Virus record (IMG/VR): IMGVR_UViG_2740892231_000005
DNA: 49,646 bases
Strand: one strand, 5' to 3'
Source of the DNA: a virus
Taxonomy: Duplodnaviria; Heunggongvirae; Uroviricota; Caudoviricetes
This document shows, in pieces, positions 28,352 to 45,677 of this stretch. The translations under genes were made by a program, and so were the position numbers. Positions within the stretch are counted from its first letter, which is position 1. The number at the start of each line of letters is the position of its first letter. The notes beneath the pieces were generated by a model that made no database searches, was not told where the DNA came from, and was given only the letters and a program-made list of their open reading frames with translations.

Positions 28352-28466
28352 CGGGTTATCTCCGGTTTAACCAGGGCGGGTATCGCTCGGTTTCGGTTAT
28401 AACCTTAGGAAATTTTTTCCCACCCGTAAAGCACTTTTTATATAAATCTATAATTATATAATTCTA
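28352..28466 (-). promoter_or_regulatory. Repeated promoter/operator/leader cassette, copy 1
   Basis: About 110 bp near-identical to 35372..35490 and 45515..45630; ends in the TATAATTATA palindrome (28449..28458). Confidence 0.6.
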
Positions 28467-29051
28467 TGACACTTGCCAGAGAGCATCATGCAACTGGATA
28501 CCTCCGTTGCACTGGTTGCCCCAGCCATGCCAGCCATCAGGTAAATCACCGCGAGCAAACAGCTCAATACGAGGAACATCACCTAACAGTCTTACCAGCT
28601 TGTCACGAACCACATCAGGCTTCCGTGAATGTTCCAGACGAGGCGATGTAAACGACTGAATGATCCCCGCATCAAGGCGAGTCGGCAGTTTGCCTTTTAC
28701 CGCAAACAAGCAATCTTCACTGTTCGCACGAGTCATATGCCCCATCCCCATCACCAGCTTATCTGGCTGTCGGCTACCACATTTGTTCCATGTGAAGCCC
28801 TTCATGGTCATCAGCCTGAATCCCCATGCTTTCACCACCAGCAACGCTTCTTCTGGCTGAGTCGGAACCCACCACATGGCCAACAAACACGATTCAGGAT
28901 TAGCAAGCTGCCAGACAGGAATACGAGCAATCTCCTCAGCTTTCATCGTTGGATACTTAAAACCAGCTCCACGATTCCCATCCTTACACTTGTCTTTGTA
29001 TTCCCAGGGGGGATCTGCATAAATCAGATTAAACAATGCAATTGCCTCCAT
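28464..29051 (-). CDS. N6-adenine DNA methyltransferase, MT-A70 family
   Basis: 195 aa; DPPW motif in the N-terminus (LIYADPPWEY). Confidence 0.8.
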   Translation of the reverse strand: MEAIALFNLIYADPPWEYKDKCKDGNRGAGFKYPTMKAEEIARIPVWQLANPESCLLAMWWVPTQPEEALLVVKAWGFRLMTMKGFTWNKCGSRQPDKLVMGMGHMTRANSEDCLFAVKGKLPTRLDAGIIQSFTSPRLEHSRKPDVVRDKLVRLLGDVPRIELFARGDLPDGWHGWGNQCNGGIQLHDALWQVS

Positions 29052-29349
29052 GTTAGTTGTGCCTCCGGCGCTTATCTCCGGCAGTCATAACGCTGGCCAG
29101 CTCTACAGCAAACACAACGAAAAGGGCACTAACCAGACTGATTAATGCCCTTGCCTGTTGTGTGCCTGATATCGCCCGACAACGCTGTTTTGGTAACACG
29201 GCTACAGTTCCGCGCCGCTCCAGCTTTTACCCCTTTGCGGATAACAGGCCCTGCCTGTAACTTAGCCCCACGTTCGCCCGAAATGCGCACCAGGCACGCA
29301 TAAAGATGAGCACGAAGGAAGTAACTCCACCGCGCTTATCTTTATGTGT

Positions 29350-29425
29350 GAGAGTGAATTGGTGGCCCCTACCGGATTTGAACCGATGACCGTGCGATTA
29401 TGAGTCGCCTGCTCTAACCACTGAG
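29350..29425 (-). tRNA. tRNA with CAU anticodon (Ile2/ileX-like, or Met)
   Basis: 76 nt; cloverleaf folds by hand (acceptor GGCCCCT/AGGGGCC, D-stem GCTC/GAGC, T-stem ATCGG/CCGGT, CCA end); one mismatch at the top of the anticodon stem. Confidence 0.8.
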
Positions 29426-29604
29426 CTAAGGGGCCATATTTGATCTGTTTGTCTGGTGTGGCGCCGCGCACGAAAATCCCAGCCAATAAATTCAGGATTT
29501 TTGGGCGCGGCGGCATATCAGACAAACATGGTTGATGCATGCGCTAATGAGAAAAGCGCATAGAATGTTGTAACTATATATTTATATAATTATAGAAATA
29601 TATA

Positions 29605-29814
29605 TTACTTTGGACAGTTGATTTCCCATGCCCTGTTATGAGCCAGAATATCTTTCTTTGTCTGGCGGTCCATAACATCGATATCGTGATCAGTCAGGTA
29701 GATGGGCTTTACCCAATCACAGGCGGTATCAACCACCACCGGGACGCTTCCACGACTCCCGCAGCTCGCGATCAACATCGTCATCAGCCATATGGTTAAC
29801 ACTCTGCTGTACAT
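29605..29814 (-). CDS. o-spanin (Rz1-like outer-membrane lipoprotein)
   Basis: 69 aa; signal peptide with lipobox-like LIASC; overlaps the 3' end of the i-spanin gene in another frame. Confidence 0.65.
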   Translation of the reverse strand: MYSRVLTIWLMTMLIASCGSRGSVPVVVDTACDWVKPIYLTDHDIDVMDRQTKKDILAHNRAWEINCPK

Positions 29815-30007
29815 TGCCCACCTCTTTTGTCACTTCTATACGCCGCTCCGCAGTGGCTTTTACGGCGGCTGCATTCTCATTAATGCGCTGCTTTTCAGCT
29901 TCATCTTCGGCCTTTTCTCGCCCCTTCATACGACCAAAACCAAACGCGCCGAATGCAACCAATATAATTGTGCCAATAAATGACAAAACGGCCTTCAAAC
30001 CAGTCAT
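29729..30007 (-). CDS. i-spanin (Rz-like)
   Basis: 92 aa; N-terminal transmembrane segment then charged coiled-coil; follows the endolysin gene. Confidence 0.65.
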   Translation of the reverse strand: MTGLKAVLSFIGTIILVAFGAFGFGRMKGREKAEDEAEKQRINENAAAVKATAERRIEVTKEVGNVQQSVNHMADDDVDRELRESWKRPGGG

Positions 30008-30546
30008 ACCACCACTCGCTCTTTCATCCAGCCGTAGACAAACGACTCATTCGCCTCGCGCTTCTCCGCCAACTCCAGATAGCGTTCGCCCTGCGTACAG
30101 TTCAGCGACGTCAGCATCACCCGTTCGCCGTCTTTTCCCCGATTCCCAAGATAAGCACGCAGCGCATTAATGGTACGTGGACCGATTCGTCCATCTGCAT
30201 CCAAATCGGGATACAGCTTCCCACGCAGATTGAACACATTCAGCCAGCGTTGAAGCATTTTGGACGCCACTGTTGGCCCCATATTCACACCGGTATCACA
30301 CAGCTCTGCCGCAATATCAGAGGATAATGCGGCCACCTGATCAAAGCGTGGTCCGTACCAGTAATCAGCCTCAAGGATTTCTAGTGCCTGTTCGCGGGTT
30401 AAATCGCGCATATCGCCACGGTATCCATGAGCACGGGCAGTGTTCTGAGTAATGCCCCACTTTGTTGGGCCTCCCTTGTCGTCAGGGTGATCCACATAGC
30501 CGCCCTCTTTTCCAAGAATGCTGTTAAAAATCTCATCTTTGGTCAT
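30004..30546 (-). CDS. Endolysin, GH108 muramidase with peptidoglycan-binding domain
   Basis: 180 aa; EGGYVDHPDDKGGPTKWGIT matches the GH108 signature (recalled). Confidence 0.8.
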   Translation of the reverse strand: MTKDEIFNSILGKEGGYVDHPDDKGGPTKWGITQNTARAHGYRGDMRDLTREQALEILEADYWYGPRFDQVAALSSDIAAELCDTGVNMGPTVASKMLQRWLNVFNLRGKLYPDLDADGRIGPRTINALRAYLGNRGKDGERVMLTSLNCTQGERYLELAEKREANESFVYGWMKERVVV

Positions 30547-30865
30547 GATTAAATCCTAATGCGTCAACTATCCGCGCCAGATTGCCCCTGAAATACAGAA
30601 CAACGATGCAGATAATCAGATTTCCAATAACCACCAGCCAGTGGGATTCTTGATAAAGACCGAACACATAACGGAAGGGAACATTGGCGTATACAATGAC
30701 GTAGATATAAGCCAGAAAGGAAACAAATGGACGATGCCTGGAGTCTTTCCGTCGATAAAGCATCAGCGCCATTACTATTACTGTGCAAAGCACCGCATTA
30801 ATCAGTGCTGACGGGTCACTGCTTACCATTTGAACCCCCTCCACGTAAGCGGGAAAGCATTCCAA
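30533..30865 (-). CDS. Membrane protein, putative holin or antiholin
   Basis: 110 aa with about three hydrophobic segments between the holin and endolysin genes. Confidence 0.45.
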   Translation of the reverse strand: MECFPAYVEGVQMVSSDPSALINAVLCTVIVMALMLYRRKDSRHRPFVSFLAYIYVIVYANVPFRYVFGLYQESHWLVVIGNLIICIVVLYFRGNLARIVDALGFNHDQR

Positions 30866-31211
30866 AGATGCTACCGAGATCCTGGCTGTTTACGAACGTG
30901 AGGATTTTAATTGTCAATGCAGCCACAATAACCGCACCAAGCGCATCAAGAGGTCGATCGTTGTAGCTGGTCCATTTGGCAAGAAATGAGCCAACTAACG
31001 GCGCTCCAATCACTCCAACAATGAACGATGTAAAGAAATAGCCAATCAGCTTGAGACGGCTAATATTCACCGCTGTAGCAACATAGAAAACAGCGCCAGC
31101 AAATGCCCCGAATACAACGCCGTAATCAATACCAGTTGCAATACCAAAAACGCTGGCACCCATCAGGCCACCAGCAGCAACGGCCGTACCGGAAATTGGT
31201 TCTGCTGACAT
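30816..31211 (-). CDS. Putative holin
   Basis: 131 aa; multiple Gly/Ala-rich transmembrane segments; first gene of the lysis cassette. Confidence 0.55.
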   Translation of the reverse strand: MSAEPISGTAVAAGGLMGASVFGIATGIDYGVVFGAFAGAVFYVATAVNISRLKLIGYFFTSFIVGVIGAPLVGSFLAKWTSYNDRPLDALGAVIVAALTIKILTFVNSQDLGSIFGMLSRLRGGGSNGKQ

Positions 31212-31223
31212 TGAAATCCTCGT

Positions 31224-31255
31224 TAAAAAAAAAGCCCCGCCGAAAAAGGCAGGGC
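31224..31255 (-). terminator. Intrinsic terminator-like hairpin with U-run, 13 nt upstream of the holin start
   Basis: Minus strand: GCCCTGCC-UUUUUC-GGCGGGGC followed by nine U. Confidence 0.55.
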
Positions 31256-31763
31256 TTCATAAAGCAACAAATTACGCGGTAATCGCTTAACGCAGTTTTA
31301 CTACGTTAAATGAAACACTACACCCAGTTACCACCTAAAACAAGGTTTTTCCATAAAAAAAACCTTCATATCGTGGTTAATCGATCAATAAAAAAGCAAT
31401 GTTCAACTTTTTACCAACCGAACATCCCGACCTGGACTTCCATAATATTCGCCGATATGCCACTGCTTAAGTTGAGTAATCTTCTCCAACTTAACTCCCA
31501 TAGAGTCCAGTTTCTGCCATGTTTTCGGTTGTATGTGCTTCATTACCCGCTCTGAATATCTGAATACTGCTCGTAAGCGCATGGTTTCTCACTACAGCTT
31601 ATATAAGTGGTTTTTCCAGCGGTTTTGCGCCGCGCTGCGCTTCTCTTTTACTCCCTCTCTGGCAATTCCAGAAAATGAGAACAACACCACACGGCGATTG
31701 CTAACTCTCAACCACTGGCTGGGATAGCAAAGTCTGTATACACGGGAGATAAGCATCTTAGCT

Positions 31764-32372
31764 TTACGGTTTTTCATCGTTTTGCTCTCCTGCGTCTCCT
31801 TTGGTGCGAATTCCAGCGGCGCGCTCGGCTTCACTTTGTTCCCAAAACCACTTGTGAAGCTCCATGAGCTTTTCGTCAATCGGTGCATATTTGCGATTAA
31901 AGTAGGCCTGAGCATCTTTCTCAGATTCGTCCGGCAATTCGCCTGGACCAAACAGTGTGTTATAAATCCATGCCAGTCCGCTTTTAGCGTCGCCAGTCGA
32001 TTGCCATTCGATAATGGCAGCCTGCATGACCAGAATGTTTTTCCCGATTAATAGGTCCAGTTCTTTGTACCTGTTGCGGATGTATGCATTCTCGCTTTGT
32101 AATTTTGCGTTGCGCTTCTCTGCGGCTTCCAGCTCAACACGCAGCTTCCCTACCGTTAGCGCAATTTCCTCGTTCTCCTGGTCACGGCGTTTTATGTATT
32201 GCTGGTTTCTTTCCCGTTCATCCAGAAGCCCCAGCACAATGTGTGGCGTTATCAAGGACTCAAATTCGGCAACAGCTTGCTCGCCTCGCTTGTAATTCTT
32301 AATCCCACCTAAATCTTTCGCGTTCTGTGCCGCCTCACGCAGTGCCTGATAGTTAATTGCTGTGCTGTTAGT
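31764..32372 (-). CDS. Coiled-coil phage protein (Ea22-like?)
   Basis: About 200 aa from MTNSTAINYQ; heptad-rich central region. Confidence 0.35.
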   Translation of the reverse strand, partial: TNSTAINYQALREAAQNAKDLGGIKNYKRGEQAVAEFESLITPHIVLGLLDERERNQQYIKRRDQENEEIALTVGKLRVELEAAEKRNAKLQSENAYIRNRYKELDLLIGKNILVMQAAIIEWQSTGDAKSGLAWIYNTLFGPGELPDESEKDAQAYFNRKYAPIDEKLMELHKWFWEQSEAERAAGIRTKGDAGEQNDEKP

Positions 32373-32712
32373 CATTCCAGGCCTCCAGCTCGTTCTGAAT
32401 CTCCTCGTCAACCTCGTCATTGGTGGCGTCTTCGTTCAGATGGTCGCGCGCCTCTTTGAGATACTGTTCACGGCGTTCGTGGTACCAGGCAGAGAACTCC
32501 GGCGACCATCCTCGATTAGCCCCCTGAAAATCTACCATCGCATTATCCTCAGCCATACGCTCGACCATGCAATCCGCGGTGGTCAGTGCAACCTCACGGA
32601 TGTACCCCCGCAGGTCACGCTTACGCCAATACGGGCTATATTTTGAGTCGCAGCGACCTTTAAATTCGACGGTCCAGCGACGGATGCAGCGTGCGTTAAG
32701 TGATTTGCTCAT
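32368..32712 (-). CDS. Hypothetical protein
   Basis: 114-aa ORF. Confidence 0.4.
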   Translation of the reverse strand: MSKSLNARCIRRWTVEFKGRCDSKYSPYWRKRDLRGYIREVALTTADCMVERMAEDNAMVDFQGANRGWSPEFSAWYHERREQYLKEARDHLNEDATNDEVDEEIQNELEAWND

Positions 32713-32714
32713 AG

Positions 32715-33398
32715 TTATGCTTCCTGAATACGCTTAAACTCAATTACCCATACCCACGGGTTAGATAGCCAGTTCTCTTGCCCGTAAATACCGCGCCAGA
32801 TATCACCAAAGCCAACGCGATAAACAGCTTCAGGTGGCGTAATCTTGTACGTCGCCGGAGTTGCGCCTTCTGCTTTAGCATCTGCCTCGCTCATGTCATG
32901 CAGCCGCTCCACACGCACGTCGGTAATTTCCAGCAAAATACGCGAAGCCCAGCGCGGCATGTGAATTGATGGACACCACCCGCCATCAAACTTTTCATTC
33001 ACAGTGTGAGGCTTCCAGTCGGCATCATCGGGTATCGACCATAAGCCATAATCCCCCGGTTTTTGCTCACAACTGGCCCGATAAATCCTTGCTGCGTTCT
33101 TCTCATCGCCACGACAAAGGTTGTCGTTCCAGTCCACACTGCAACCATCCTCATTGCCTAATATCGCCCACGCTTCACGGACCCATATGCGATCACCAAC
33201 GTTACCGAACGGGCATAAACCATGTTCAGGTGCATCCATAACGTGGGTATAGACACCATTGCGTTTCTTTGTCGGTTTACGGATAACCAGGCAGTTATCG
33301 GCCCTGACATTTTTTACAGGTCGGCGAGTCTGCGTCTTCCTTCCTTCGAGGATGGCCCTAACCATATCGTCATTAAAAACAACACCACGTTCTTTCAT
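32715..33398 (-). CDS. Hypothetical phage protein (ASCH/PUA-like?)
   Basis: 227 aa; N-terminus MVRAILEGRKTQTRRP typical of a prophage protein family (recalled). Confidence 0.45.
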   Translation of the reverse strand: MKERGVVFNDDMVRAILEGRKTQTRRPVKNVRADNCLVIRKPTKKRNGVYTHVMDAPEHGLCPFGNVGDRIWVREAWAILGNEDGCSVDWNDNLCRGDEKNAARIYRASCEQKPGDYGLWSIPDDADWKPHTVNEKFDGGWCPSIHMPRWASRILLEITDVRVERLHDMSEADAKAEGATPATYKITPPEAVYRVGFGDIWRGIYGQENWLSNPWVWVIEFKRIQEA

Positions 33399-33553
33399 TT
33401 AGAAGCCACCTTGTTCAATTTCCGGCGACAAGACACGCAATCATCAGGACTCTCAAAAGTGTCTGGCTCACGGTAATCACCAAAATACATCCAACGGCCG
33501 CAAATGCTGGTCACTTCACCTTCATTAAAATAATGATGTTTATTCGCCTTCAT
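33395..33553 (-). CDS. Small Cys-containing protein (zinc-ribbon-like?)
   Basis: About 52 aa from MKANKHHY; CGRW...CVSC. Confidence 0.3.
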   Translation of the reverse strand: MKANKHHYFNEGEVTSICGRWMYFGDYREPDTFESPDDCVSCRRKLNKVASK

Positions 33554-33582
33554 TGGCCTGACCCATCCGGCATTTTTCTTGC

Positions 33583-33948
33583 TCACTTCAACTCCTCCCG
33601 ACGACGTTCCTGAAGCTCTAGCATTGCGGCTCGGAAATCCTGCCACCATTCTTCATCGGCTACTGGGGTGTTCCGCTCCAGCACCTTGTCCGCATCGGCG
33701 ATCAGGTTTGCCAGACTCTTGTCTGAAATCTTCGTTACCGGAGTCGTTGGTTGCTCAACCTGCCCGATAGGTTTTATCGTGCTCAAAAGGAGGCGACGGC
33801 GGGAAAGTGGTGCCCCACAACGACGGCCATCTTCCTTGCGATATGTTTCTTTCGGACCAACACACCAGGTTGTCGGCGTCTCGCGCAACTTCACTTTTTT
33901 CTCACCATCATTGGTAATGATTATTCCGGTATGTGTTTTGATGCTCAT
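33583..33948 (-). CDS. Hypothetical protein
   Basis: 121-aa ORF. Confidence 0.4.
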   Translation of the reverse strand: MSIKTHTGIIITNDGEKKVKLRETPTTWCVGPKETYRKEDGRRCGAPLSRRRLLLSTIKPIGQVEQPTTPVTKISDKSLANLIADADKVLERNTPVADEEWWQDFRAAMLELQERRREELK

Positions 33949-34247
33949 GCCACAGCCCCTCTCAACGGCTTAACTTTGGCTAATAAGGTGTTAAACAACA
34001 TGGAGTTAGGATTCATGCCAAATGGCAATTCCGGTTTAGCGGAGTAGTACAGGCAACCATTTATTTTCCTGGTTGTTATCTGTCCTTCGGCAACCATGCT
34101 TCTCAGTCTGCAACGCATAGAGTTCTGCGACACACCAATGTGCTCCGCGATTACGTCCACTTTTGAACATGGGTGATCGGTCAGGAAATTAATCACATCT
34201 TGGGGGTTAATAATTTTGCGTTTCATTGTCGAGGCATCCTTATACAT
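33945..34247 (-). CDS. Putative winged-helix DNA-binding protein
   Basis: 100 aa; HTH-like segment VDVIAEHIGVSQNSMRCRLRSMVAEGQI. Confidence 0.45.
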   Translation of the reverse strand: MYKDASTMKRKIINPQDVINFLTDHPCSKVDVIAEHIGVSQNSMRCRLRSMVAEGQITTRKINGCLYYSAKPELPFGMNPNSMLFNTLLAKVKPLRGAVA

Positions 34248-34273
34248 TTATATAAATATATAATTCTATATAC

Positions 34274-34292
34274 GGCGGGAGACGTCCCGCCG
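34274..34292 (-). terminator. GC-rich palindromic hairpin downstream of the 34304..35371 gene
   Basis: cggcggga-gacg-tcccgccg; weak U-tract. Confidence 0.35.
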
Positions 34293-34303
34293 TAGGCTTA
34301 CTG

Positions 34304-35371
34304 TCAGGCTTTCAATAGCGATTCTTTTAGATATCGGGCATCAGCCAGGGCGTTTGGAGTAATCTTGCGAACCCATGCATTACGGGTTGGACTCCACTTA
34401 AAGGCGCGTGATTTAAGCAGCGAACGAATGTTTGCCTCTGGTTTGCCAGGGAAATAAAACAGGATGCGGTTATCCTCTGGATCTATCTCCATAGAAAAGC
34501 CGTCGTATTCTTCGCGCTGTGCTCCTGTTACAGACTTGACCGATTCAAGCTCCTTAATACGGCTCTGTAGTCGTTTGATTTCGGCGTTATTGTTGCTCAG
34601 TGCGTATGAAGGGAATCCGATGCGCCCACAGAAATCTCCGGCCAGTAACTCTTTGGCTTCGCTTTCTGTAAACCTGAGATCGATTAATGCAGAAAGCTGC
34701 TGTAATTGGTCTTTTTTGTATTTGCGAATGGCCTTATTTGCGGCCTTCATTTTGACGTGTGACTTCATGCAGCCTTGCAGCTTACGAAGCAACTTAAATA
34801 GCGCATCAGGATCATCAGACGAAATTCCATTACGACCAACACCTGCGGCTTTGCTCTCGTAGTGTGATGCTTTACTTTCGCATTCAACAAACGCTTTTCT
34901 TAATAACGCATCAGCTTTAGACAAACGGCGGCGATGGCCTTTCGCGCTATAATGGTCAACTAAAATCGGCTGGCCTAACGGGATCACATCCAACAGGTCA
35001 TGCGCTCGCTTATGCGCTACCGCACCTTCTTTTCTGGCTTTTTCTGCACGAGCAATATATCGGGCAAGACGCGCGTTCTGGCGTTCCTGATAGGTGTTTA
35101 CGTAATCATCTCCGCGCTGCTGCTGTTCAAGCCATGCTTTGCGCAGATCTTCTGTTACGTCCACCAGCTCCGCAGGGATACAACCAGTTTGGGCTTCATA
35201 AGAGTAACCATCCTCATAGATACGCCCATCATCTTCAACAAAGAAAAAGGTTTCGTGCTCATCGCTTTTGACCATACGACCATTAACATGGCGTAATAGG
35301 TAGCCAGTATCAGTGCTTAACAGGCTGTTAGGGTTGTTGATCCAGTCAGAAATAATTACTTGTTTATTCAT
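34304..35371 (-). CDS. DUF3560-like protein (tentative), first gene downstream of promoter cassette copy 2
   Basis: 355 aa from MNKQVIISDW (start chosen by conserved leader and RBS); C-terminal FYFPGKP...FKWSPTRNAW motif. Confidence 0.5.
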   Translation of the reverse strand: MNKQVIISDWINNPNSLLSTDTGYLLRHVNGRMVKSDEHETFFFVEDDGRIYEDGYSYEAQTGCIPAELVDVTEDLRKAWLEQQQRGDDYVNTYQERQNARLARYIARAEKARKEGAVAHKRAHDLLDVIPLGQPILVDHYSAKGHRRRLSKADALLRKAFVECESKASHYESKAAGVGRNGISSDDPDALFKLLRKLQGCMKSHVKMKAANKAIRKYKKDQLQQLSALIDLRFTESEAKELLAGDFCGRIGFPSYALSNNNAEIKRLQSRIKELESVKSVTGAQREEYDGFSMEIDPEDNRILFYFPGKPEANIRSLLKSRAFKWSPTRNAWVRKITPNALADARYLKESLLKA

Positions 35372-35490
35372 CAGATTTCTCCGGTTTAACCAGGGCGGGT
35401 ATCGCTCGGTTTCGGGCATAACCTTAGGAAATTTTTTCCCACCTGTAAAGCACTTTTTATATAAATCTATAATTATATATTTATAGATTT
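35372..35490 (-). promoter_or_regulatory. Repeated promoter/operator/leader cassette, copy 2
   Basis: Near-identical to copies 1 and 3; contains TATAATTATA (35468..35477). Confidence 0.6.
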
Positions 35491-35540
35491 TCGATGTTCC
35501 CGATATCTACACACCATCAAAACAGCTCAAAATGACACTT

Positions 35541-35918: not shown

Positions 35919-35921
35919 TGT

Positions 35922-37891: not shown

Positions 37892-37909
37892 TTAACGAAC
37901 TCCAGTTAA

Positions 37910-38027
37910 ACCACGATATGTGGTATTAAACCCACATATCGTGAGTTTTTCAATGGGCGAAACAAAAAATAACCTTCTATTTGTGGTCCACCTCTCGTCT
38001 TACCATGTGAAAACCACTAAATGTGGT
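37910..38027. promoter_or_regulatory. Immunity operator cluster: palindromes ACCAC-N5-GTGGT at 37910..37924 and 38013..38027, partial sites at 37933..37943 and 37983..37991
   Basis: Seen in sequence between the divergent cro-like and cI-like starts. Confidence 0.65.
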
Positions 38028-38064
38028 AATGTATAAATAACCCACCATTCACGATTGATGAGAC

Positions 38065-38721
38065 ATGAAAAGCAACGACGAGAACATCAAGAAAGAAATA
38101 GGTCTGCGCATTCAGACTCTACGGAAACAATCCGGCATGACTGCCGGAGATCTCCAGCAAGTCACTGGAATAGGCTTAAGCACCTTGCAGAACTATGAGG
38201 CCGGATTAAGACAACCATCTATACCTGCCATCAAGAAAATCGCGCACGCCCTGAAAGCATCAGCGCCTTATATCGCGTGCTTAACAGATAACCCGTTCCC
38301 ACCCCAGAATACTAACGCTCCTGTTATTCCTGGGCTTGTAGCTATAAAAAATGACATAGCATCGCACGCCGGAGAAAAGCCAGTGCTGGCGATAGAACAG
38401 GAGATTCTACGAAGCAAGAACATCAACCCATCGTCTCTGTCAGTTCTCCAGAGCAACGATGAGTTAATGTCACCAACAATATCCCCTGGCTCCCAAGTCC
38501 TGATTAATACAGACGATACAGAGATTCATGAGGGGATCTATGCCCTTGAAGACAGAAATGGCCTGGTTGTTTTGAGGCACTGTAGAGTCATACCGGGTGA
38601 CAATGCTGTTATGCTGTCAACCGAAAGGGATGCTGAAATGAACACTAAGCATCTGAATAATGAGGAATTTAAGCGTTATAAAGTTCTTGGCCGCGTAGTT
38701 AGTGTTGTCAACTGGTTATGA
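38065..38721 (+). CDS. cI: CI-like repressor (N-terminal XRE HTH, C-terminal S24/LexA-like domain)
   Basis: 218 aa; HTH (LRKQSGMTAGDLQQVTGIGLSTLQNYEAG); C-terminal domain with S24-like features. Confidence 0.8.
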   Translation: MKSNDENIKKEIGLRIQTLRKQSGMTAGDLQQVTGIGLSTLQNYEAGLRQPSIPAIKKIAHALKASAPYIACLTDNPFPPQNTNAPVIPGLVAIKNDIASHAGEKPVLAIEQEILRSKNINPSSLSVLQSNDELMSPTISPGSQVLINTDDTEIHEGIYALEDRNGLVVLRHCRVIPGDNAVMLSTERDAEMNTKHLNNEEFKRYKVLGRVVSVVNWL

Positions 38722-38813
38722 TACACAGCACGGCGGAAGCCGTGCATTTCTACGCTCAAAAAAACCACATTTTGTGGTTTTGACAACATGTAAAAGTATA
38801 AAAGAGGCTACGC

Positions 38814-39188
38814 ATGGAATTACATACAGCCAATAAAAACGAAACTCTGATCACTGCTGGAATCGAAATCCAAGCGTTGAACATAGCGATTGAGTGTATG
38901 TTATGCCAAATCATTGATAATGAGAAAGATATCGACTGGATAGAATCTATCCTTCATCTGGCATCAGAACAAAAAATCTGCCTCAAAACGGCCTTACAAT
39001 ACGATGTGCCAGCGGTATCGAAGCTGTGCCAACCATTGATGGCATATAACAGAGCTATTATTTCTGTATGCCTCATGATTCTCGATGAAAACACCCCTCT
39101 TAGCGACCGCTCAGAAGCTGCTCTAACCCTCTCACGTAAACAGCGACAGCTAGCAAATCAACTGATATCAACGATAGCTGACCTCTGA
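38814..39188 (+). CDS. Hypothetical protein co-oriented with and downstream of the repressor gene
   Basis: 124-aa ORF; AT-rich by eye; followed by a hairpin. Confidence 0.5.
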   Translation: MELHTANKNETLITAGIEIQALNIAIECMLCQIIDNEKDIDWIESILHLASEQKICLKTALQYDVPAVSKLCQPLMAYNRAIISVCLMILDENTPLSDRSEAALTLSRKQRQLANQLISTIADL

Positions 39189-39192
39189 CTGC

Positions 39193-39212
39193 AAGCGGGC
39201 TAACGCCCGCTT
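39193..39212 (+). terminator. Hairpin (aagcgggc-taac-gcccgctt) closing the repressor operon
   Basis: 8-bp GC stem; weak U-tract. Confidence 0.45.
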
Positions 39213-39320
39213 ATATGATTATAGATTTATATAATTATATAAAACGCTTTTCATCCGCCAAAAAGTTGGTTATGCTTACCTCGTTCTATAAATATAGATT
39301 TATAGAATTATATAATCAAA
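39213..39320. repeat. AT-rich iteron cluster (tatgattatagatttatataattatataa ... tataaatatagatttatagaattatataat) upstream of parA; candidate centromere or operator
   Basis: Contains exact TATAATTATA (39230..39239) and the repeated unit ATAGATTTATA. Confidence 0.55.
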
Positions 39321-39338
39321 CACATGGAGTCTCGACAA

Positions 39339-39992
39339 ATGACTATCTCTGTAGGTATTTTCAACGGAAAAGGCGGCGTAACCAAATCAACAATTGCCCG
39401 TGCTTTAGCAGTTGCTTATGCAAAGGCTGGCTGGAATGTATGCCTGATCGATATGGATGTGCTTAACGGAACGGTAACGCGTTGGGTACAACGCAGAATG
39501 GCCAACAATATCGAACCAGCAATCGCGGCGCAGCCGTGCGGCACACCATCACAAGTCCAGAAAATCATCGAATCAGAAGTATACGACTTGGTTATCGTCG
39601 ATGGCGGTGCCTACGCATCTGAATCAGTACCGAAGCTCTCTGAATTTCTGGATATGGTTATTTTGCCAACCAGATTCTCTACCGATGACCTGGAAACCAC
39701 CGTTAACACAGCTCACGGCATCGTTAAAAAGGGTGTACCAATCAAGAAAATTTGCATGGTGTTTTCCGGCGCGGCTGAAAACGAAGCTGACTATATTGAA
39801 GCCCAAGAGTACCTGGCTAATACGCCATACTTTGTTGTCGATAAGTACATTCCCCACAAGCCAGCTCTGAGCAAAGCTCAGGATAAGGGCTTAAGCCTCA
39901 TTGAGTGCTCATACGTTGCGCCACGCAAAAAGGCAGACGACGTTATTCAGGGGATTATCAACCAGCTTGAGGCTCTGACTACTGCCGCGTAA
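39339..39992 (+). CDS. parA: ParA-family partition ATPase
   Basis: Deviant Walker A GKGGVTKST; start chosen at the second ATG with GGAG RBS (ORF track gives 39324). Confidence 0.8.
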   Translation: MTISVGIFNGKGGVTKSTIARALAVAYAKAGWNVCLIDMDVLNGTVTRWVQRRMANNIEPAIAAQPCGTPSQVQKIIESEVYDLVIVDGGAYASESVPKLSEFLDMVILPTRFSTDDLETTVNTAHGIVKKGVPIKKICMVFSGAAENEADYIEAQEYLANTPYFVVDKYIPHKPALSKAQDKGLSLIECSYVAPRKKADDVIQGIINQLEALTTAA

Positions 39993-40020
39993 TATATAAT
40001 TATAGTTTTATAGATTTATA
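39985..40020. repeat. Second iteron block (aatatataattatagttttatagatttatataa) between parA and the RHH gene
   Basis: Exact TATAATTATA at 39995..40004. Confidence 0.5.
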
Positions 40021-40035
40021 TAAGAGGGGATGCAC

Positions 40036-40284
40036 ATGGCCGCACCATCAAAACCACCAAAGAAGAACAGCAAAGGCGTACCGCCATCGATCGAACAACC
40101 GCAGGTTTTCGACCCGACTGAAACGCCAACCAGAACCAAATCAGGTGGGGCACAAATGGCGTTTAACGTCGACCCTGAATTTAAACGCGAGTACAAAACG
40201 TTCGCCAGCTCAATGGATATGTCATTGAAAGAAGTGCTGACAAAATCTTTTGAGTTACTCAAGGCTCAATACAACCAGAAGTAA
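40036..40284 (+). CDS. ParG-like ribbon-helix-helix centromere-binding protein (type Ib partition)
   Basis: About 82 aa; disordered basic N-tail then RHH-like C-terminus (MAFNVDPEFKREYKTFASSMDMSLKEVLTKSFELL); directly after parA. Confidence 0.55.
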   Translation: MAAPSKPPKKNSKGVPPSIEQPQVFDPTETPTRTKSGGAQMAFNVDPEFKREYKTFASSMDMSLKEVLTKSFELLKAQYNQK

Positions 40285-40313
40285 GAGAAGGTGACGGCCT
40301 CCAGCGCCAACTG

Positions 40314-40496
40314 TTGGCCGTCGCGACACAACAAGGGGAATTTGTTATGTCCGAGCAACAATATACACGGTTACTGAAAACTCGTCTAACCGACCTCAAA
40401 CGGCTGCAAGCTGGTCGCTTATTTGCCCTGCTATCCACCAGGCCAGAATGGGTACGTGAAGCAGTTCTGAAAGGCTTAATGCGCTCCAGCGTTTAA
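40314..40496 (+). CDS. Hypothetical small protein
   Basis: 60-aa ORF downstream of the partition genes. Confidence 0.3.
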   Translation: MAVATQQGEFVMSEQQYTRLLKTRLTDLKRLQAGRLFALLSTRPEWVREAVLKGLMRSSV

Positions 40497-40506
40497 ATTC
40501 AACCAT

Positions 40507-40528
40507 AAAAAAGGCCCCCGAAGGGGCC
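40507..40528 (-). terminator. Intrinsic terminator hairpin (ggccccc-gaa-ggggcc) with U-run on the minus strand; possibly bidirectional
   Basis: A6 run on the plus strand 40507..40512 immediately 5' of the stem. Confidence 0.55.
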
Positions 40529-40537
40529 TAATCGCTA

Positions 40538-40660
40538 CTTGCTGCTAATGTTTATCGTCACATTCAGAGCGTTATCAGTAATCTTCCAACCCTCCCCATG
40601 TGGCGTAAACAAAGCTCCAGTAACAACGATAAAAATACACATACAGTATTTTTTCATTGT
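40538..40660 (-). CDS. Small ORF (40 aa, MKKYCMCIFIVVTGALFTPHGEGWKITDNALNVTINISSK) with signal-peptide-like N-terminus
   Basis: Hand-translated; AAGGG RBS 6 nt upstream; terminator directly downstream. Confidence 0.3.
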
Positions 40661-41054
40661 ATGGCCCTTACAGGCCGTTTCACGGCATCCCCACCGACGA
40701 AAACAACGCGAGAGCAAGCACGGCTGCTTGTGCTTGCATGTACGGCAACGGAGAATCCTCCCCTAAAGTCGGTGCCCGGGTGCGAATCGGCGGGAAGGTC
40801 CACAGGTATTTTACGATTATTTTAAGATTAGTAATAGGAAAGAAATTAAACGAAAAAACTCGTTTATTTTCACAAAATCAGTAACCTACCCACAATCTGT
40901 GAGTTTGCAGGCACAACAAGAACCACAATTTTTTGAAGCATAATAGTGGACTATTATTACCTTTTGGGTAAAATTAACTTGCTGCTTGTGCTTGCGTGGT
41001 TGTTTATACAACAACGTAATGCTGAAAGGACCGCGAATCCGATCAGCACGAAAG

Positions 41055-41082
41055 AACCGTCCTCAAAAGGACGGTTTTTTTG
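41055..41082 (+). terminator. Intrinsic terminator (aaccgtcct-caaa-aggacggtt followed by T7)
   Basis: Seen in sequence; overlaps the stop codon of the convergent 41063..41635 gene. Confidence 0.6.
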
Positions 41083-41635
41083 TTTCTCCCCCTTCCTTCC
41101 CAAATGATTCAAATGTTAATGAGAGAGAATCATTTGATATGTTCGATTTAGCGCCGTTATCGACCCAATTTCTGTATGCTTCATCACAACAGTACCTTAC
41201 GGCAGTTGGAATAACAGGAGAGCCGCCCAGAAATGAAAATCCCATTGAGCTTATGCTAATTCTTTCGAATGGCCTATTTCTCAATGCTTCAAATCCCTTG
41301 CTGTTGAAGTAACTCAGCATCAGAGGTAAAAGGTTATCCTCGTCTTGACTGATTGTTCCCGGGAAAAAGTAGTAACCATGGCGATTAAATTCGGGAATCA
41401 GTTTTTCTACCAACAACATGAAATTCATTGGGGTAATATTAAGGGCAGAGCAAGCACCAAAAAGAGCATCAACCGTTAATACAGACTGTCCGTTCTCTAT
41501 CTTTGTCCATGCGTTTGGTGTTTTTCCAGCAGCTTGAGCCAGCACTCCTTGATGCACACCTCTTTCTAGCCTAAGTTCTTTTATGATCATTAGGTGGATT
41601 GTTGAAAAACATGAGTTTTTTGACGTTTCAGTCAT
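41063..41635 (-). CDS. XRE-family HTH regulator with about 130-aa C-terminal domain of unknown function
   Basis: Start at MTETSKN; HTH (LRLERGVHQGVLAQAAGKTPNAWTKIENGQ). Confidence 0.55.
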   Translation of the reverse strand: MTETSKNSCFSTIHLMIIKELRLERGVHQGVLAQAAGKTPNAWTKIENGQSVLTVDALFGACSALNITPMNFMLLVEKLIPEFNRHGYYFFPGTISQDEDNLLPLMLSYFNSKGFEALRNRPFERISISSMGFSFLGGSPVIPTAVRYCCDEAYRNWVDNGAKSNISNDSLSLTFESFGKEGGETKKPSF

Positions 41636-41772
41636 TTTTTTATCCCCATATTGAATTTTTTCCTTGTTCCCAACTTTAACAAAACACCACAACTCAGGAT
41701 TGAGTCATTCCCTACAGGAACTATACATTCCCGTCTTTGGTATATCAAGAAAATTAAAAGCTCGGCATTCAA

Positions 41773-41789
41773 ACCCACACTATGTGGTT
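41773..41789. promoter_or_regulatory. Additional CI-type operator (cccac-actat-gtggt) in the divergent region between the XRE gene and the antirepressor operon
   Basis: Same ACCAC-N5-GTGGT palindrome as in the immunity region. Confidence 0.55.
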
Positions 41790-42081
41790 TAGTCTGTTAA
41801 AATCCGCCGTATTGACATGAATGCGTCATTGGTGGACACTTTCCGAGCCGTAGCAAAATCTACGGTCGGGATTGGCGTCCCGATTGCACAATGGCGCATA
41901 CCGCGTTAGCGGTTTTTTTATGCGTAAAGCACTGCTACACCCAAATTATGGTGGGGCGTGCGGGGGCGGAGAAATCCGCGCCGGGTTTGTCATTGTGCCG
42001 GTTACGCCAACCCTGTACGTCTCACCACCATATTGATTGGCGTCATTGGTGGTGATAGTTCCTTTAATCGGAGATATCACA

Positions 42082-42273
42082 ATGACAAACCTACCCCATG
42101 ACTATTACGTCAACCTCGTAAAGATCCTTCTCAAGAAAGCCTCATACGCCGATAAATTCCGCCTGGCTGAAATCATCGAGCGCGAAGCTATGCGCATCGC
42201 CAGCAACGATAACGCTGTTTCTGACGCAAAAATCTCCCTCGTAACCAAAGTTGTTATGGGAGGTGCAAAATGA
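42082..42273 (+). CDS. Small protein upstream of, and translationally coupled to, the antirepressor gene (icd-like position)
   Basis: 63 aa from MTNLPHDYY with GGAGA RBS; its stop overlaps the ant start (ATGA). Confidence 0.45.
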   Translation: MTNLPHDYYVNLVKILLKKASYADKFRLAEIIEREAMRIASNDNAVSDAKISLVTKVVMGGAK

Positions 42274-43421
42274 AAACGCTTCCGACCGTTAACACCCTAC
42301 AGCCTATCCTGCATAATCAGATTCCAGTAATCACAACTGAGCTACTCGCCCGCCTTTATGGAACAGAAGCAATCCGTATACAGCAAAATCACCATGAAAA
42401 TAAAACTCGGTTCATTGAGGGGAAGCACTTCTTTAAAGCTGTTGGTGATGAACTCAAAAATTTGCGACTAGTTTTAAACGAGTCACAAAATGAGGTGCAA
42501 ATTTCCCCCAAAACTCGCTCTCTCATCCTCTGGACAGAACGCGGGGCTGCACGTCACGCCAAAATGCTTGAAACTAACCAAGCGTGGGATGTGTTCGAAC
42601 GGCTGGAAGACTGCTATTTCAACCAGAACGCGCAAACGGCCGCGACCGTAACCGTCTCGCCAAACAATGCTCGTGAGGTTGTCGATACGCTCAACGCCAA
42701 ACCGATGTTTTACATTAAGGTGTGCAACAACGAGCCACTCACAACCTCAGCCGATGTTGCCCAGGCATTCAGCACCACAAACAATTCCATCGTTATGGCC
42801 ATCGATGCGTTACGCATTCCTCGCACAGCTGCGGCACGTCATTTCTTTAAAGAGCAACGACCGCTGGAAGGAAGCGACCGCGAAATAACAATCTATCGCA
42901 TGACAAAAGACGGATTTACCTTGCTCATGGAAAGTATCGACGGTCCAGGCGTGAAAGATATCAAGCTGGCCTACATTGAAGCCTTTAACGCTATCAGCAG
43001 CGTGTTAAAAACACAGTACGAGCGTGATCTGGCTAAACGACTGTACCAGGAAAAAACGATTATCCGCGCGGCAACAGAGCATAATCGGCTATTAACGGAA
43101 CCGAACTACAGGAAGGAACTAATCAAGGAGTTTGACAAGGCAACAGGGAAAACCAAAGCGGCGCTAAATCTGCCAGCAATGACTCAGGAAAATGTGATAT
43201 CAGCCTTACTTCTTGATCTGCTCAGAAACGCCAGAGCACTTATCAGCTTTGACGAAAACCTGAATCCTCAGCTCAAGCTACTACCACCGACAGGCAAAGT
43301 AGTCGACCAAGCTGATCACAACAGCATACTCAGCGTTCTGGATGCAAACCTGCCAGCCAGGACACTACAGGATCTGATAAAAACATGTGCTGATAAGCTG
43401 GCACAGAAAAGCAGACCATAA
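42270..43421 (+). CDS. Antirepressor-like protein (ORF6N/Rha-type N-terminal domains)
   Basis: 383 aa; two N-terminal segments resembling ORF6N/Rha-type antirepressor domains (PVITTELLARLYGTEAIRIQQNHHENKTRFIEGKHFF). Confidence 0.7.
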   Translation: MKTLPTVNTLQPILHNQIPVITTELLARLYGTEAIRIQQNHHENKTRFIEGKHFFKAVGDELKNLRLVLNESQNEVQISPKTRSLILWTERGAARHAKMLETNQAWDVFERLEDCYFNQNAQTAATVTVSPNNAREVVDTLNAKPMFYIKVCNNEPLTTSADVAQAFSTTNNSIVMAIDALRIPRTAAARHFFKEQRPLEGSDREITIYRMTKDGFTLLMESIDGPGVKDIKLAYIEAFNAISSVLKTQYERDLAKRLYQEKTIIRAATEHNRLLTEPNYRKELIKEFDKATGKTKAALNLPAMTQENVISALLLDLLRNARALISFDENLNPQLKLLPPTGKVVDQADHNSILSVLDANLPARTLQDLIKTCADKLAQKSRP

Positions 43422-43425
43422 CTAC

Positions 43426-43455
43426 AAGGGGCTACGGCCCCTTACTCTTTTCTCT
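43426..43455 (+). terminator. Intrinsic terminator after the antirepressor gene
   Basis: aaggggc-tacg-gcccctt followed by a T-rich tract. Confidence 0.6.
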
Positions 43456-44157
43456 CTTATCAACACCAGAGACTTTCTGAAAATCCTTTCGAATAGCGTC
43501 AGCGTCACGCGCCAAGCCCATACTGGAACGTGTCGCCATATGACGAAAATGATCAACTGCCGGAAACAAAGAAATAATGGACCCAATAGCTTGCAGCAAA
43601 CTCGCTTTTCTACGCATCATAATTCCACCATAACCGATAACCACCCTTCAGACACAACCCCCCCTCCCCCCATACAGGGTGCCCTTTACCGGAGTTCCGG
43701 CCCCTTCTCAAAAGCATCAAAAAAAGCTCGAGATAGAGTACCGGAACTCATGCCACCAGATAGCTCCACATCGTTTCCAATGCTTCGCCGCCGTGTGCGC
43801 CCTGTGGCCCACAATCATGCCATTGGTCGTCTGATATACCTTCTTCTGCTCATAGAGCACAGGCGAGTTGTCGCACTCCTGCCTTTCTCAGACTCGACTT
43901 AGTTTAGATCGCTGTTCCTGGCTTGCGTCAGCACACTTTCCCCTTGTACGCATACCCGCGCGCCACTTCGCCCAAAAACACCGAACCCAACGAAGTGGCA
44001 AAGACAACGACGCGAGCGTGAGTCTGAAATGGGCACCAGTAAAAAAGGGGTTGCAGGCGCAAAAAGATTTGATTATCTTTAGACGCAAGAAAGCCGCCCC
44101 AATCAAGAGGTGTCTTTTTAAATCCAGCCTACCAAGCAAGATTTAAATTTCAGACTG

Positions 44158-44185
44158 AAAACCGCCCGGCAAGGCGGTTTTTGTC
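44158..44185. terminator. Bidirectional terminator-like hairpin (aaaccgcc-cggcaa-ggcggttt plus T-run)
   Basis: Seen in sequence; downstream of the minus-strand XRE gene and at the end of an ORF-poor region. Confidence 0.55.
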
Positions 44186-44230
44186 TTTCTGGCGCTTACA
44201 TTACACCACCATAAAACGATCCGTAAAGGA

Positions 44231-44503
44231 TCATTTGATCCCTTGTTCCAATTCTGCCGACACTTTAACCTTTTCCCATACAAGGGTTTGCAGCCTTAAC
44301 AGAATCGCATCTTTATCAAGGTGTGAAAGATCCTTAACCATATCGTCAAACGACAGAACGCGAATGGCCATCTCAATGACCCTCGGCGGCTCCCCCTTCT
44401 CATATCGCTTATATGTAGCCAACGATATCCCAAACTCTTCGGCTGCTCGCTCCTGCGTCCAGTTCATCCCACGACGCCATAATTTCAATTCGTAACCCGT
44501 CAT
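44231..44503 (-). CDS. XRE-family HTH regulator
   Basis: 90 aa; HTH (WTQERAAEEFGISLATYKRYEKG). Confidence 0.7.
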   Translation of the reverse strand: MTGYELKLWRRGMNWTQERAAEEFGISLATYKRYEKGEPPRVIEMAIRVLSFDDMVKDLSHLDKDAILLRLQTLVWEKVKVSAELEQGIK

Positions 44504-44604
44504 TACATCCTCTACCTTTCCCTAGATATTCAATAAATTAGACATAGCCACTCACGACAAAATAAGATGTATTAACAATCCAATCTTTAGGCTTTAGGTA
44601 AAAA

Positions 44605-45030
44605 ATGAGTTCATCTGCTTTTGTCACCGTGGTCACTGGTGTAAGTGTTTTTGTTCTAGGCCAACTCATCGTCAAAGGAGCTATTGAGCCTTACATTTCA
44701 TTCAGGGAACAACTAGGGAAAATATCCAATCTGTTATTATGTAACCAAGCAAAAATAGTGAATCCTGGCTCGAACTTAAAGCCAGAAATCATTCATGATC
44801 TAAAAGATTCCGCAGCACAGTTAATGGCGAAATATTCCACTTTACCTTTCTATATCAAAAAGTTACATATCGGCTTTCGTCTTGTTCCATCAGCCACCGA
44901 GATTCTTGGGGCAGCTCAAAATTTGAACTATATAGCGTCAATACATGAAGGTAAGACTGGGGAGAATCCATCTAAGCATCTCGAAGAGATTGGCCATATG
45001 CTCAAAATACCAACTACCTATTCAAGCTAA
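44605..45030 (+). CDS. Hypothetical protein with N-terminal transmembrane segment; AT-rich gene
   Basis: 141 aa; hydrophobic N-terminus (AFVTVVTGVSVFVLGQLIV); visibly lower GC than its neighbours (by eye). Confidence 0.5.
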   Translation: MSSSAFVTVVTGVSVFVLGQLIVKGAIEPYISFREQLGKISNLLLCNQAKIVNPGSNLKPEIIHDLKDSAAQLMAKYSTLPFYIKKLHIGFRLVPSATEILGAAQNLNYIASIHEGKTGENPSKHLEEIGHMLKIPTTYSS

Positions 45031-45133
45031 CCCAATGTAAGTTATCGGCTTGCCCCACAATAAGTTATCTATCTTCAAACGCCCCCTATATTAACACTCG
45101 CAAAGTGTCAAAATGACACTTTGCGCATTGTGT

Positions 45134-45514
45134 TTACTTAACGAGGAATAAAAATGGTTTATTGTTCGGCGGTGTAATCGGGGCTGGCTCGCTTTTGCTC
45201 ATGCGATCAGTGTACCAGGCCAACTCCTTGTCAAAGTAAGCCTGATTAAAATAGGCCATGAATGTAGTTTCAAATCCATAACGACCGCTAATACGCAGCA
45301 TCTGATTGCCGTTCTCTGTTTCCAGATATACCTGGGCACGTTCCTGATTCTCCTTCAGCCAGGTTAAAGCCTCATCGCATGAGGACACACGATACTCATC
45401 ATCGTAGCAGTCATCGATGCGGCTTGAGGAAGAACGGCAAATCACGCCAACAGAACCAGCCAGGATAGTTTGAATTTTAAGGAAAGCGTTTTTGCGGATT
45501 TTAATCATGCTCAT
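45134..45514 (-). CDS. Hypothetical protein, first gene downstream of promoter cassette copy 3
   Basis: 126-aa ORF with the conserved leader and RBS upstream. Confidence 0.5.
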   Translation of the reverse strand: MSMIKIRKNAFLKIQTILAGSVGVICRSSSSRIDDCYDDEYRVSSCDEALTWLKENQERAQVYLETENGNQMLRISGRYGFETTFMAYFNQAYFDKELAWYTDRMSKSEPAPITPPNNKPFLFLVK

Positions 45515-45630
45515 CGGGTTATCTCCGGTTTAACCAGGGCGGGTATCGCTCGGTTTCGGGTATAACCTTAGGAATTTTTTTCCCACCTGTAAAGCACTTT
45601 TTATATAAATATATAATTATATAATTCTAT
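45515..45630 (-). promoter_or_regulatory. Repeated promoter/operator/leader cassette, copy 3
   Basis: Near-identical to copies 1 and 2; TATAATTATA at 45612..45621. Confidence 0.6.
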
Positions 45631-45635
45631 GAGCA

Positions 45636-45662
45636 CAAAAAAGCCCCTTTGCAACAGGGGCT
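45636..45662 (-). terminator. Intrinsic terminator downstream of the HigBA-like operon
   Basis: Minus strand: agcccct-loop-aggggct followed by a U-run. Confidence 0.6.
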
Positions 45663-45677
45663 TATCATTCGTTCTGA

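Follow-up and report, generated by a model that had tools for sequence, protein, structure and literature searches.

Why does a 10-bp perfect palindrome recur through about 17 kb of a phage genome, at the starts of operons and around a partition gene? The question is raised by the viral record IMGVR_UViG_2740892231_000005, a 49,646-nucleotide (nt) stretch of DNA that we refer to as a whole as the window and that is essentially a complete ~49-kb phage-plasmid. From the sequence alone, the palindrome, TATAATTATA, had been proposed as the binding site either of a ribbon-helix-helix (RHH) partition protein acting as a global regulator, as KorB does, or of another phage regulator. Our analysis replaces the palindrome with a longer element, which is present eight times and in which about four 8-bp units follow one another in tandem. 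We consider it probable (roughly 0.6) that these arrays are the cognate sites of the 82-amino-acid (aa) RHH protein predicted to be encoded after parA. This protein is best read, by analogy with omega of plasmid pSM19035, as binding the centromere of a type Ib system and regulating several operons as well.

The repeated element

The six coordinates originally given for TATAATTATA are all exact (28449, 29585, 35468, 39230, 39995, and 45612), and dinucleotide shuffles of the window lead us to expect only 0.07 copies. With at most one mismatch there are 17 sites versus 2.35 expected, and these include 34259 and 39303, the variants previously noticed near 34259 and 39300. The window is 44% GC, not roughly 50 percent as first estimated. 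Every copy lies within a tract that is at least 85% AT, as it would if the motif were a chance product of low-complexity AT-rich intergenic DNA. To control for local composition, we used the 15 distinct window tracts in which A/T makes up 28 or more of 32 bases, the AT-richest of the window. Shuffling within each tract gives 0.09 expected copies; the expectation is 0.22 under a first-order Markov model fitted to these tracts. The observed count was not reached in any of 5,000 AT-matched simulations, which refutes a chance origin, and the excess is still ~30-fold even if only the AT-richest tracts are modeled. The original prediction thus survives the control for AT content on which it had staked its claim. 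In addition, all seven AT-rich tracts outside the arrays lack a copy, the units are in strict 8-bp phase, and the array positions are kept in Salmonella, Serratia, and metagenomic relatives, where conservation had been suggested as a check. We regard the probability of a chance origin as negligible.

The palindrome itself is not the functional unit. Repeat finding returned a family with a start-to-start spacing of 8, and TAKA starts in AT-rich tracts peak at lags of 8, 16, and 24. What repeats is thus a run of about four 8-bp units in phase, with the consensus TAKAWTTA, and the final unit of each array is always TATAA-. TATAATTATA consists of a TATAATTA unit together with the TA of its successor. 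Six of the eight arrays hold one TATAATTA unit, and those at 34237 and 39287 hold TAGAATTA instead, which explains the variants of the 10-mer. The palindrome first reported as the repeated entity is therefore a by-product of the 8-bp arrays.

We scanned the window with a position weight matrix (PWM) scored against a 90% A/T background, which identified exactly eight arrays (Table 1), hereafter named by their start positions. Their scores range from 20 to 27, the next best site scores about 10, and no array occurs in the 28 kb of structural genes. A partial match at 10081 (TTTTATATAAATCTA) comprises only one and a half units and was rejected as an array. Three arrays are at the par locus, and five head other transcription units. 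All eight precede gene starts, and four adjoin putative -35 boxes, namely that of the parA promoter and those of three promoter-leader modules described below.

The par locus and its small protein

The par locus has the features of a type Ib partition system. ParA matches Pfam CbiA/ParA/MipZ/AAA_31 from residue 10 on, contains GKGGVxKS, and has no N-terminal site-specific DNA-binding domain. Repeat arrays upstream of parA bracket its putative promoter, an arrangement kept in four classes of relatives, and a gene for a small protein with a predicted RHH fold is directly downstream of parA, starting 44 nt after it. Array 39214 follows a terminator hairpin (39191-39212), and the putative parA -35 box begins 2 nt after the array. 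Array 39287 begins 10 nt past the putative -10 box and stops just short of the parA ribosome-binding site, and array 39995 takes up the space that separates parA from the small gene. The promoter-like pair between the first two arrays occupies the same position in all classes, and this conservation suggests that it is the parA promoter.

The small protein consists of a disordered, basic N-terminal tail and a predicted C-terminal RHH domain (strand AQMAFNV). An exhaustive search recovered about 60 cluster representatives of 74 to 90 aa, with a basic N-terminal motif (MA..KPPKK.N.KG.PP) and a shared C-terminal pattern (LNFKV..EF.RE.K.FA...DMSM.ELL...FELYK). The window protein itself matches no Pfam family and carries no ParB domains. 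Among 48 family members, Pfam RHH_10 matched 17 (best E value, 8.8e-6), Antitox_RHH matched ten, and 56B_RHH matched four, and none matched Pfam ParG. An in-register alignment of the family profile with ParG (1P94) was obtained, although a weak one (E value, 0.58). There was no Omega_Repress match, and searches of the PDB did not return omega.

Structural modeling is consistent with these matches. An AlphaFold model built on a deep alignment has a predicted local distance difference test (pLDDT) score of 92 to 97 at residues 41 to 80, a low-confidence tail, and helices at residues 47 to 59 and 64 to 80 behind an extended segment. Nearly all of the top 38 Foldseek matches are RHH DNA binders (CdbA, StnY, AmrZ, CopG, CopA, ORF56, ParD, MatP, PutA, AtaR, Arc, MazE6, and NikA), at 1.0 to 2.3 Å over 41 to 46 residues, with single E values of only 0.6 to 5. 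A model from a shallow alignment reached a pLDDT of 65 and was uninformative in Foldseek. We regard an RHH domain behind a ParG-like flexible tail as established at the level of the fold, and homology to ParG itself is not established.

Table 1. Arrays, putative promoters, and par genes of the window
Feature	Coordinates	Strand	Details
Module 1 array	28435..28466	-	TAGAATTA TATAATTA TAGATTTA TATAAAAA; stops 4 nt before -35
Module 1 putative promoter/leader	28349..28430	-	-35 TTTACG 28425-28430; imperfect palindrome 28408-28424; -10 TAAGGT 28402-28407
Module 1 leader		-	hairpin 28369-28392; Shine-Dalgarno 28359-28363; ATG 28349-28351
Array 29577	29577..29608	ambiguous	TATATTTA TATAATTA TAGAAATA TATATTAC
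Array 34237	34237..34268	-	TAGAATTA TATATTTA TATAAATG TATAAGGA
Module 2 array	35454..35485	-	TATAAATA TATAATTA TAGATTTA TATAAAAA
Module 2 putative promoter/leader	35369..35449	-	-35 35444-35449; palindrome 35427-35443; -10 35421-35426; hairpin 35388-35411; ATG 35369-35371
par array 1	39214..39245	+	TATGATTA TAGATTTA TATAATTA TATAAAAC
Putative parA promoter	39248..39276	+	-35 TTTTCA 39248-39253; 17-nt spacer; -10 TATGCT 39271-39276
par array 2	39287..39318	+	TATAAATA TAGATTTA TAGAATTA TATAATCA
parA	39339..39992	+	217-aa Walker-type ParA ATPase, type Ib
par array 3	39995..40026	+	TATAATTA TAGTTTTA TAGATTTA TATAAGAG
Small partition protein	40036..40284	+	82 aa; proposed array reader
Module 3 array	45598..45629	-	TAGAATTA TATAATTA TATATTTA TATAAAAA
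Module 3 putative promoter/leader	45512..45593	-	-35 45588-45593; palindrome 45571-45587; -10 45565-45570; hairpin 45532-45555; ATG 45512-45514

Repeat dialects, promoter modules, and the probable reader of the arrays

We assigned the relatives to classes A to D by the predicted beta-strand of the small protein. Class A (the window, Salmonella, L013, and L014) combines the strand AQM[AS]FNV with the unit TAKAWTTA, and class B (a Serratia marcescens plasmid and L017) combines K[AL]MNFNV with AATCTTTA. Class C (five viral contigs) has KQLLL[RQ]L and ATATAAAT or ATATCTTT. Class D (a conjugative cfr plasmid and contigs of Pectobacterium, Shimwellia, Erwinia, Pantoea, and Serratia grimesii) has AQLNLY[VI] and TATAATTA or TATTTTTA. 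If alternate strand positions face the DNA, as the RHH fold suggests, the reading residues differ by class: Q-A-N in A, A-N-N in B, Q-L-R in C, and Q-N-Y in D. The arrays of Serratia were missed by a lag-8 self-similarity scan and were found by reading homologous positions. A genome scan with the ParA alignment recovered class D loci only, and the class C par locus had no megablast match among plasmids.

Classes A to C share one parA layout (hairpin, array, promoter-like pair, array, and ribosome-binding site), and in class D, too, arrays precede parA and lie between parA and the small gene. The dispersed arrays of classes A to C occupy homologous positions and are written in the dialect of their own par arrays. 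Counted in par and dispersed arrays, respectively, TAGA/TCTA occurs 5 and 7 times in the window and 4 and 6 times in Salmonella, with 0 to 1 per set in class B and C replicons. TATC/GATA occurs 4 to 6 and 11 to 13 times in class C, compared to 0 and 0 in the window, 1 and 0 in Salmonella, 4 and 0 in L003, and 0 and 1 in L017. WWTCTTTA occurs 6 to 7 and 7 to 9 times in class B, 0 and 0 times in class A, and 1 to 2 and 2 to 3 times in class C. PWMs built from the par-proximal arrays only, against a genomic background, gave near-diagonal class matches at a strict threshold.

The three modules of the window form a 122-nt direct repeat, 87 to 97% identical and on the minus strand, with the array at its upstream end. 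Each runs in the order array, 4 nt, -35 box (TTTACA), 17-nt spacer with an imperfect palindrome, -10 box (TAAGGT), conserved leader, and ATG. Across eight replicons, all 24 leader-bearing modules carry an array, whose place never varies: it lies a few nucleotides ahead of the putative -35 box, as at the parA promoter. Module 1 precedes a same-strand gene run into the ParB/Srx-like, terminase, and structural genes, and module 2 precedes a DUF3560, primase-like gene. The array of module 3 follows the terminator of a toxin-antitoxin operon (45641-45663), and the module precedes the gene of a 126-aa protein. The leader hairpin, just upstream of the Shine-Dalgarno sequence, is a conserved feature in its own right: among 18 distinct leaders from three classes, compensatory double changes are seen at four of its seven predicted pairs, and no leader disrupts the outer stem. 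The hairpin might affect RNA stability or processing, or it might bind a protein.

The two remaining dispersed arrays lie outside modules. Array 29577 is about 140 nt upstream of a minus-strand tRNA-Met (29360-29435) and MT-A70 methyltransferase gene (28464-29051). The tRNA gene (anticodon CAT) overlaps a 92-aa open reading frame (29262-29540) that matches a PHROG family and may be spurious. Array 34237 sits between a hairpin (34273-34292) and the ribosome-binding site of a 93-aa MarR-like gene (ATG, 34226), which is followed on the same strand by a small-gene/lysis cluster. The leader of this gene (...CTCGACAATG) resembles that of parA. The two share the start region array-GGAG/GGAT-N-CTCGACAA-ATG (34224-34240 and 39326-39341, respectively), which is kept in classes A to C at both genes, as if an array-plus-leader cassette had been reused.

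Every module promoter also carries a 17-bp palindrome in its -35/-10 spacer, an imperfect GGGAAAAAATTTCC in the window, TAGGAAAATATTTCCTA in Salmonella, and TAGGAC-N5-GTCCTA in classes B and C. Outside the window, palindromes of this kind were located at L002 29090, L003 27003, and L017 13498. Classes B and C have the palindrome in common although their array units differ, and it recurs without an array at one further promoter per replicon (47174-47190 in the window). The four palindrome-only promoters score only -20 to +6 with the array PWM. The palindrome and the arrays therefore appear to have different readers. The palindrome-only site of the window is upstream of a 99-aa gene (46856-47155) with no Pfam hit, which may encode an autoregulated palindrome-binding regulator.

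The class D plasmid NZ_CP037908 (L004), an otherwise unrelated 28.5-kb conjugative cfr plasmid with arrays at par, separates the par cassette from the phage. It has in common with the window ParA (45%), the small protein (41%), a toxin-antitoxin segment, and a weak RepA match, and it lacks homologs of Rha, of the CI-like repressor, and of the 124-aa protein whose gene lies upstream of parA. Its arrays also occur in two intergenic gaps of the type IV secretion system (T4SS) operon (L004 11981-12018 and 13756-13793), one of them between virB10 and virB9, which suggests that the small par protein also marks or regulates transfer genes there. The segment with the HigB2/RelE-type toxin-antitoxin pair and a module fragment (about 45560-46580 in the window; L004 1444-2872) is about 97% identical between the two, and IS26 cuts the L004 module within the promoter spacer. 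These features indicate a recent exchange between a phage-plasmid and a resistance plasmid.

Could a different protein read the arrays? Another phage regulator, IHF, Fis, H-NS, or RNA polymerase itself (through UP elements or clustered -10-like TATAAT boxes) would suit arrays that are about 90% AT, contain TATAAT, and are placed like UP elements, and the 124-aa protein also diverges between classes. However, class B arrays lack a TATAAT-like hexamer at the same positions. Host nucleoid proteins are highly conserved among Enterobacterales, and lineage-specific dialects are not expected of them. NZ_CP037908 has arrays but none of the three candidate phage proteins. The cI/cro-like intergenic region carries CCAC-N5-GTGG-type repeats and no array, and the spacer palindrome is plausibly the operator of another regulator, separable from the arrays. 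We judge a different reader to be very unlikely. The second option of the original prediction, another phage regulator, is accordingly disfavored, as such a protein would seem to have a site of its own in these promoters, the spacer palindrome. The CI-like repressor in particular was rejected on account of the different repeats and the lack of an array in its own region and its absence from NZ_CP037908. The divergent region between its gene and the leftward early genes contains a palindrome with 12-bp arms (CACGATATGTGG...CCACATATCGTG) and CCAC/GTGG repeats (37912-37943 and 37970-38030), which are candidate operators of the repressor. Replication-origin iterons were also rejected: replication is of the IncFII RepA type, and repA lies away from the arrays.

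The matching dialects, the constant palindrome, the module arrays, the arrays of NZ_CP037908, and the array-less cI/cro region together make the small par protein the most plausible reader. The first option of the original prediction stands as far as its RHH fold, the arrays flanking the parA promoter, the dialect match in classes A to C, and the arrays that travel with the par cassette are concerned; binding and a global regulatory role are what we infer from them.

A protein bound to the dispersed arrays need not affect transcription. These arrays may be only extra centromeres, at which the RHH protein would build or spread a partition complex over the 49-kb genome and which would be intergenic since coding sequence cannot hold them. 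Phage-plasmid N15 reportedly has dispersed centromere sites. Class D arrays flank the par operon and in one case lie within an operon, between virB10 and virB9, and array 34237 has no separate promoter. Moreover, the promoter sites of omega all act as parS (PMC9499535). Nevertheless, a purely centromeric role would not readily account for the fixed place of the array upstream of the -35 box in all modules, as at parA, or for the position of all eight window arrays before gene starts, and known RHH centromere-binding proteins repress promoters overlapped by their sites (PMC3130281, PMC9499535). We therefore consider a centromere-only role unlikely.

Several observations weigh against the combined role in partition and regulation that we favor. 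The promoters are placed by their conserved position. A consensus scan flagged neither the putative parA promoter (8/12 matches) nor those of the modules, and it detected no promoter-like enrichment in the region (21 found versus 26.8 expected). The three modules of the window are paralogous, so that within one genome their arrays do not count as separate pieces of evidence. All dialects consist of AT-rich 8-mers, and they overlap: the PWMs of classes C and D reach 25 to 31 bits on class A arrays, compared to 28 to 33 bits for the class A PWM, and the own-class PWM is best in only 20 of the 24 modules. Array 34237 leaves no space for a separate promoter, and one array of NZ_CP037908 fills the gap between genes of a single operon. 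Array 34237 and the T4SS-operon array could equally well be operators or have a purely centromeric or roadblock function. Most of the modules that are not best matched by their own class belong to L018, a class C member with the strand KQLLLQL instead of KQLLLRL. The arrays of L018 consist of ATATAAAT, ATATATTT, and ATATAAAA only, without the C-bearing ATATCTTT units, and this R-to-Q change may represent a single-residue specificity shift.

If the small protein is both centromere binder and regulator, then by analogy with ParG and omega the beta-ribbon of each dimer would enter the major groove at a single 8-bp unit, and about four dimers would coat an array cooperatively. At par, the arrays would form the partition complex, in which the basic N-terminal tails would stimulate ParA, and they would also autorepress the parA operon. 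On the five dispersed arrays, the same protein would act on the structural cluster, the primase-like gene, the tRNA/methyltransferase unit, the small-gene/lysis cluster, and the 126-aa gene. Repression is the most likely outcome at the modules, where the arrays stand 4 nt from the putative -35 box with the geometry of the parA promoter. It may operate by blocking upstream contacts of RNA polymerase, together with a second regulator that reads the spacer palindrome. The dispersed arrays could serve as extra centromeres at the same time.

A more speculative extension, which we consider quite unlikely, is a copy-number-sensing lock on lytic development. The autoregulated protein level would keep roughly 32 unit sites per genome filled in the plasmid prophage, and the structural, lysis, primase-like, and methylase/tRNA units would be silenced jointly with the palindrome-binding regulator. 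Lytic replication would outpace synthesis of the protein, and titration of the partition protein by the replicating arrays would then free the promoters. Such a lock would wire segregation and the lysis-lysogeny decision through one RHH protein, and the array dialect would also set incompatibility and immunity groups among related phage-plasmids.

Genomic setting and known systems

The window is 97% identical to the Yersinia phages vB_YpM_39, 41, and 44, and over this region it is 96 to 100% identical to about 48-kb plasmids of Escherichia coli (including ATCC 25922), E. albertii, E. fergusonii, and Klebsiella. It carries an IncFII-type RepA, a CI-like helix-turn-helix/S24 repressor, a small ParA, and myovirus structural genes. 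Membership of the pSLy3 group was rejected, as this group sits in the ~100-kb SSU5 supergroup, and phage vB_YpM_HQ103 was set aside as an unrelated 32-kb phage. A full-length homolog of the small RNA ryfA (142 bits; 40507-40803, minus strand) lies within a ~1.1-kb gene-poor stretch behind the par operon. Rfam matches to isrK (41847-41919) and C4 antisense RNA (41944-42032) are on the plus strand just upstream of an ORF6N/Rha antirepressor-like gene (42270-43421), an arrangement like that of the P1/P7 immI region. The structural region contains direct repeats at 70-190 (a perfect 55-nt duplication spaced 66 nt), 3343-3735 (three 93-nt copies), and 9093-9377 (45-nt copies at 120-nt spacing), which are probably repeated domains of tail-fiber-type genes.

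If the preferred reading holds, one small protein would link the inheritance of the plasmid with the expression of phage genes in a widespread ~48-kb phage-plasmid family, found in E. coli, E. albertii, E. fergusonii, Salmonella, Klebsiella, Serratia, and phages infecting Yersinia pestis. The occurrence of the cassette and its arrays in conjugative resistance plasmids, including the cfr plasmid, would extend the regulon idea beyond phages. The four beta-strand variants and four repeat dialects would offer a natural specificity series for the reading of almost pure A/T DNA by RHH proteins, and the dialects predict incompatibility groups. The literature we searched contained no description of the partition system, motif, or RHH regulator of this family.

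Partition sites scattered through a phage genome have a precedent in N15, reportedly described by Grigoriev and Lobocka in 2001. N15 is said to be a linear phage-plasmid with sopC-like centromeres scattered rather than clustered at the par operon, but it uses type Ia SopA/SopB and single inverted repeats instead of an RHH protein with tandem arrays. KorB of RK2 is a large helix-turn-helix type Ia ParB that reads a 13-bp palindrome. Here, by contrast, the candidate is an 82-aa RHH protein on tandem 8-bp units, and the likeness is that of a partition protein with scattered operator sites acting as a global regulator (scattered sites are mentioned in PMC5016525). The original analogy with KorB is thus misplaced, and omega and ParG are the closer parallels. 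ArtA of Staphylococcus aureus pSK41 is not known to be the centromere-binding protein of its own plasmid's partition system. It is a plasmid RHH protein that exerts global control over several plasmid operons (PMC2777438).

ParG, which acts with ParF on the parH-OF sites of TP228, is a close parallel in protein architecture and host: a type Ib system of an enterobacterial plasmid, with a flexible N-terminal tail and a C-terminal RHH domain. Its sites are 4-bp boxes with 4-bp AT-rich spacers, which give an 8-bp period with one dimer per box; they occur in mixed orientations upstream of the ATPase gene and act as both centromere and operator (PMC3130281). The 8-bp period is present in our arrays, and the ACTC box of ParG is absent from the TAKAWTTA units. 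ParG has 20 boxes at one locus, in contrast to almost pure AT units spread over 17 kb here. The system described here would work like ParG and omega and is type Ib by the features tested, but it is not a demonstrable member of either sequence family, and no sequence similarity between the small protein and omega was detected.

A close parallel in overall design is the omega/Delta system of Streptococcus pyogenes pSM19035, which likewise pairs a small RHH centromere binder with a small ParA. Omega is a Firmicute plasmid protein that controls copy number, partition, and toxin-antitoxin genes, while the putative targets in this enterobacterial phage-plasmid are phage operons. Its units are 7-bp WATCACW in arrays of 7 to 10, compared to about four 8-bp TAKAWTTA units here. 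The omega arrays overlap three promoters, and at least four contiguous repeats are required for full ParA activation (PMC9499535), compared with about four units per array in the window. Omega is a centromere binder and regulator that places one dimer on each of several short contiguous repeats at several promoters. A partition protein that serves several operons in this way has been worked out only for the Firmicute resistance plasmid pSM19035, and this phage family, for which the literature searched holds no such account, would follow the omega-like design if the preferred reading is right.

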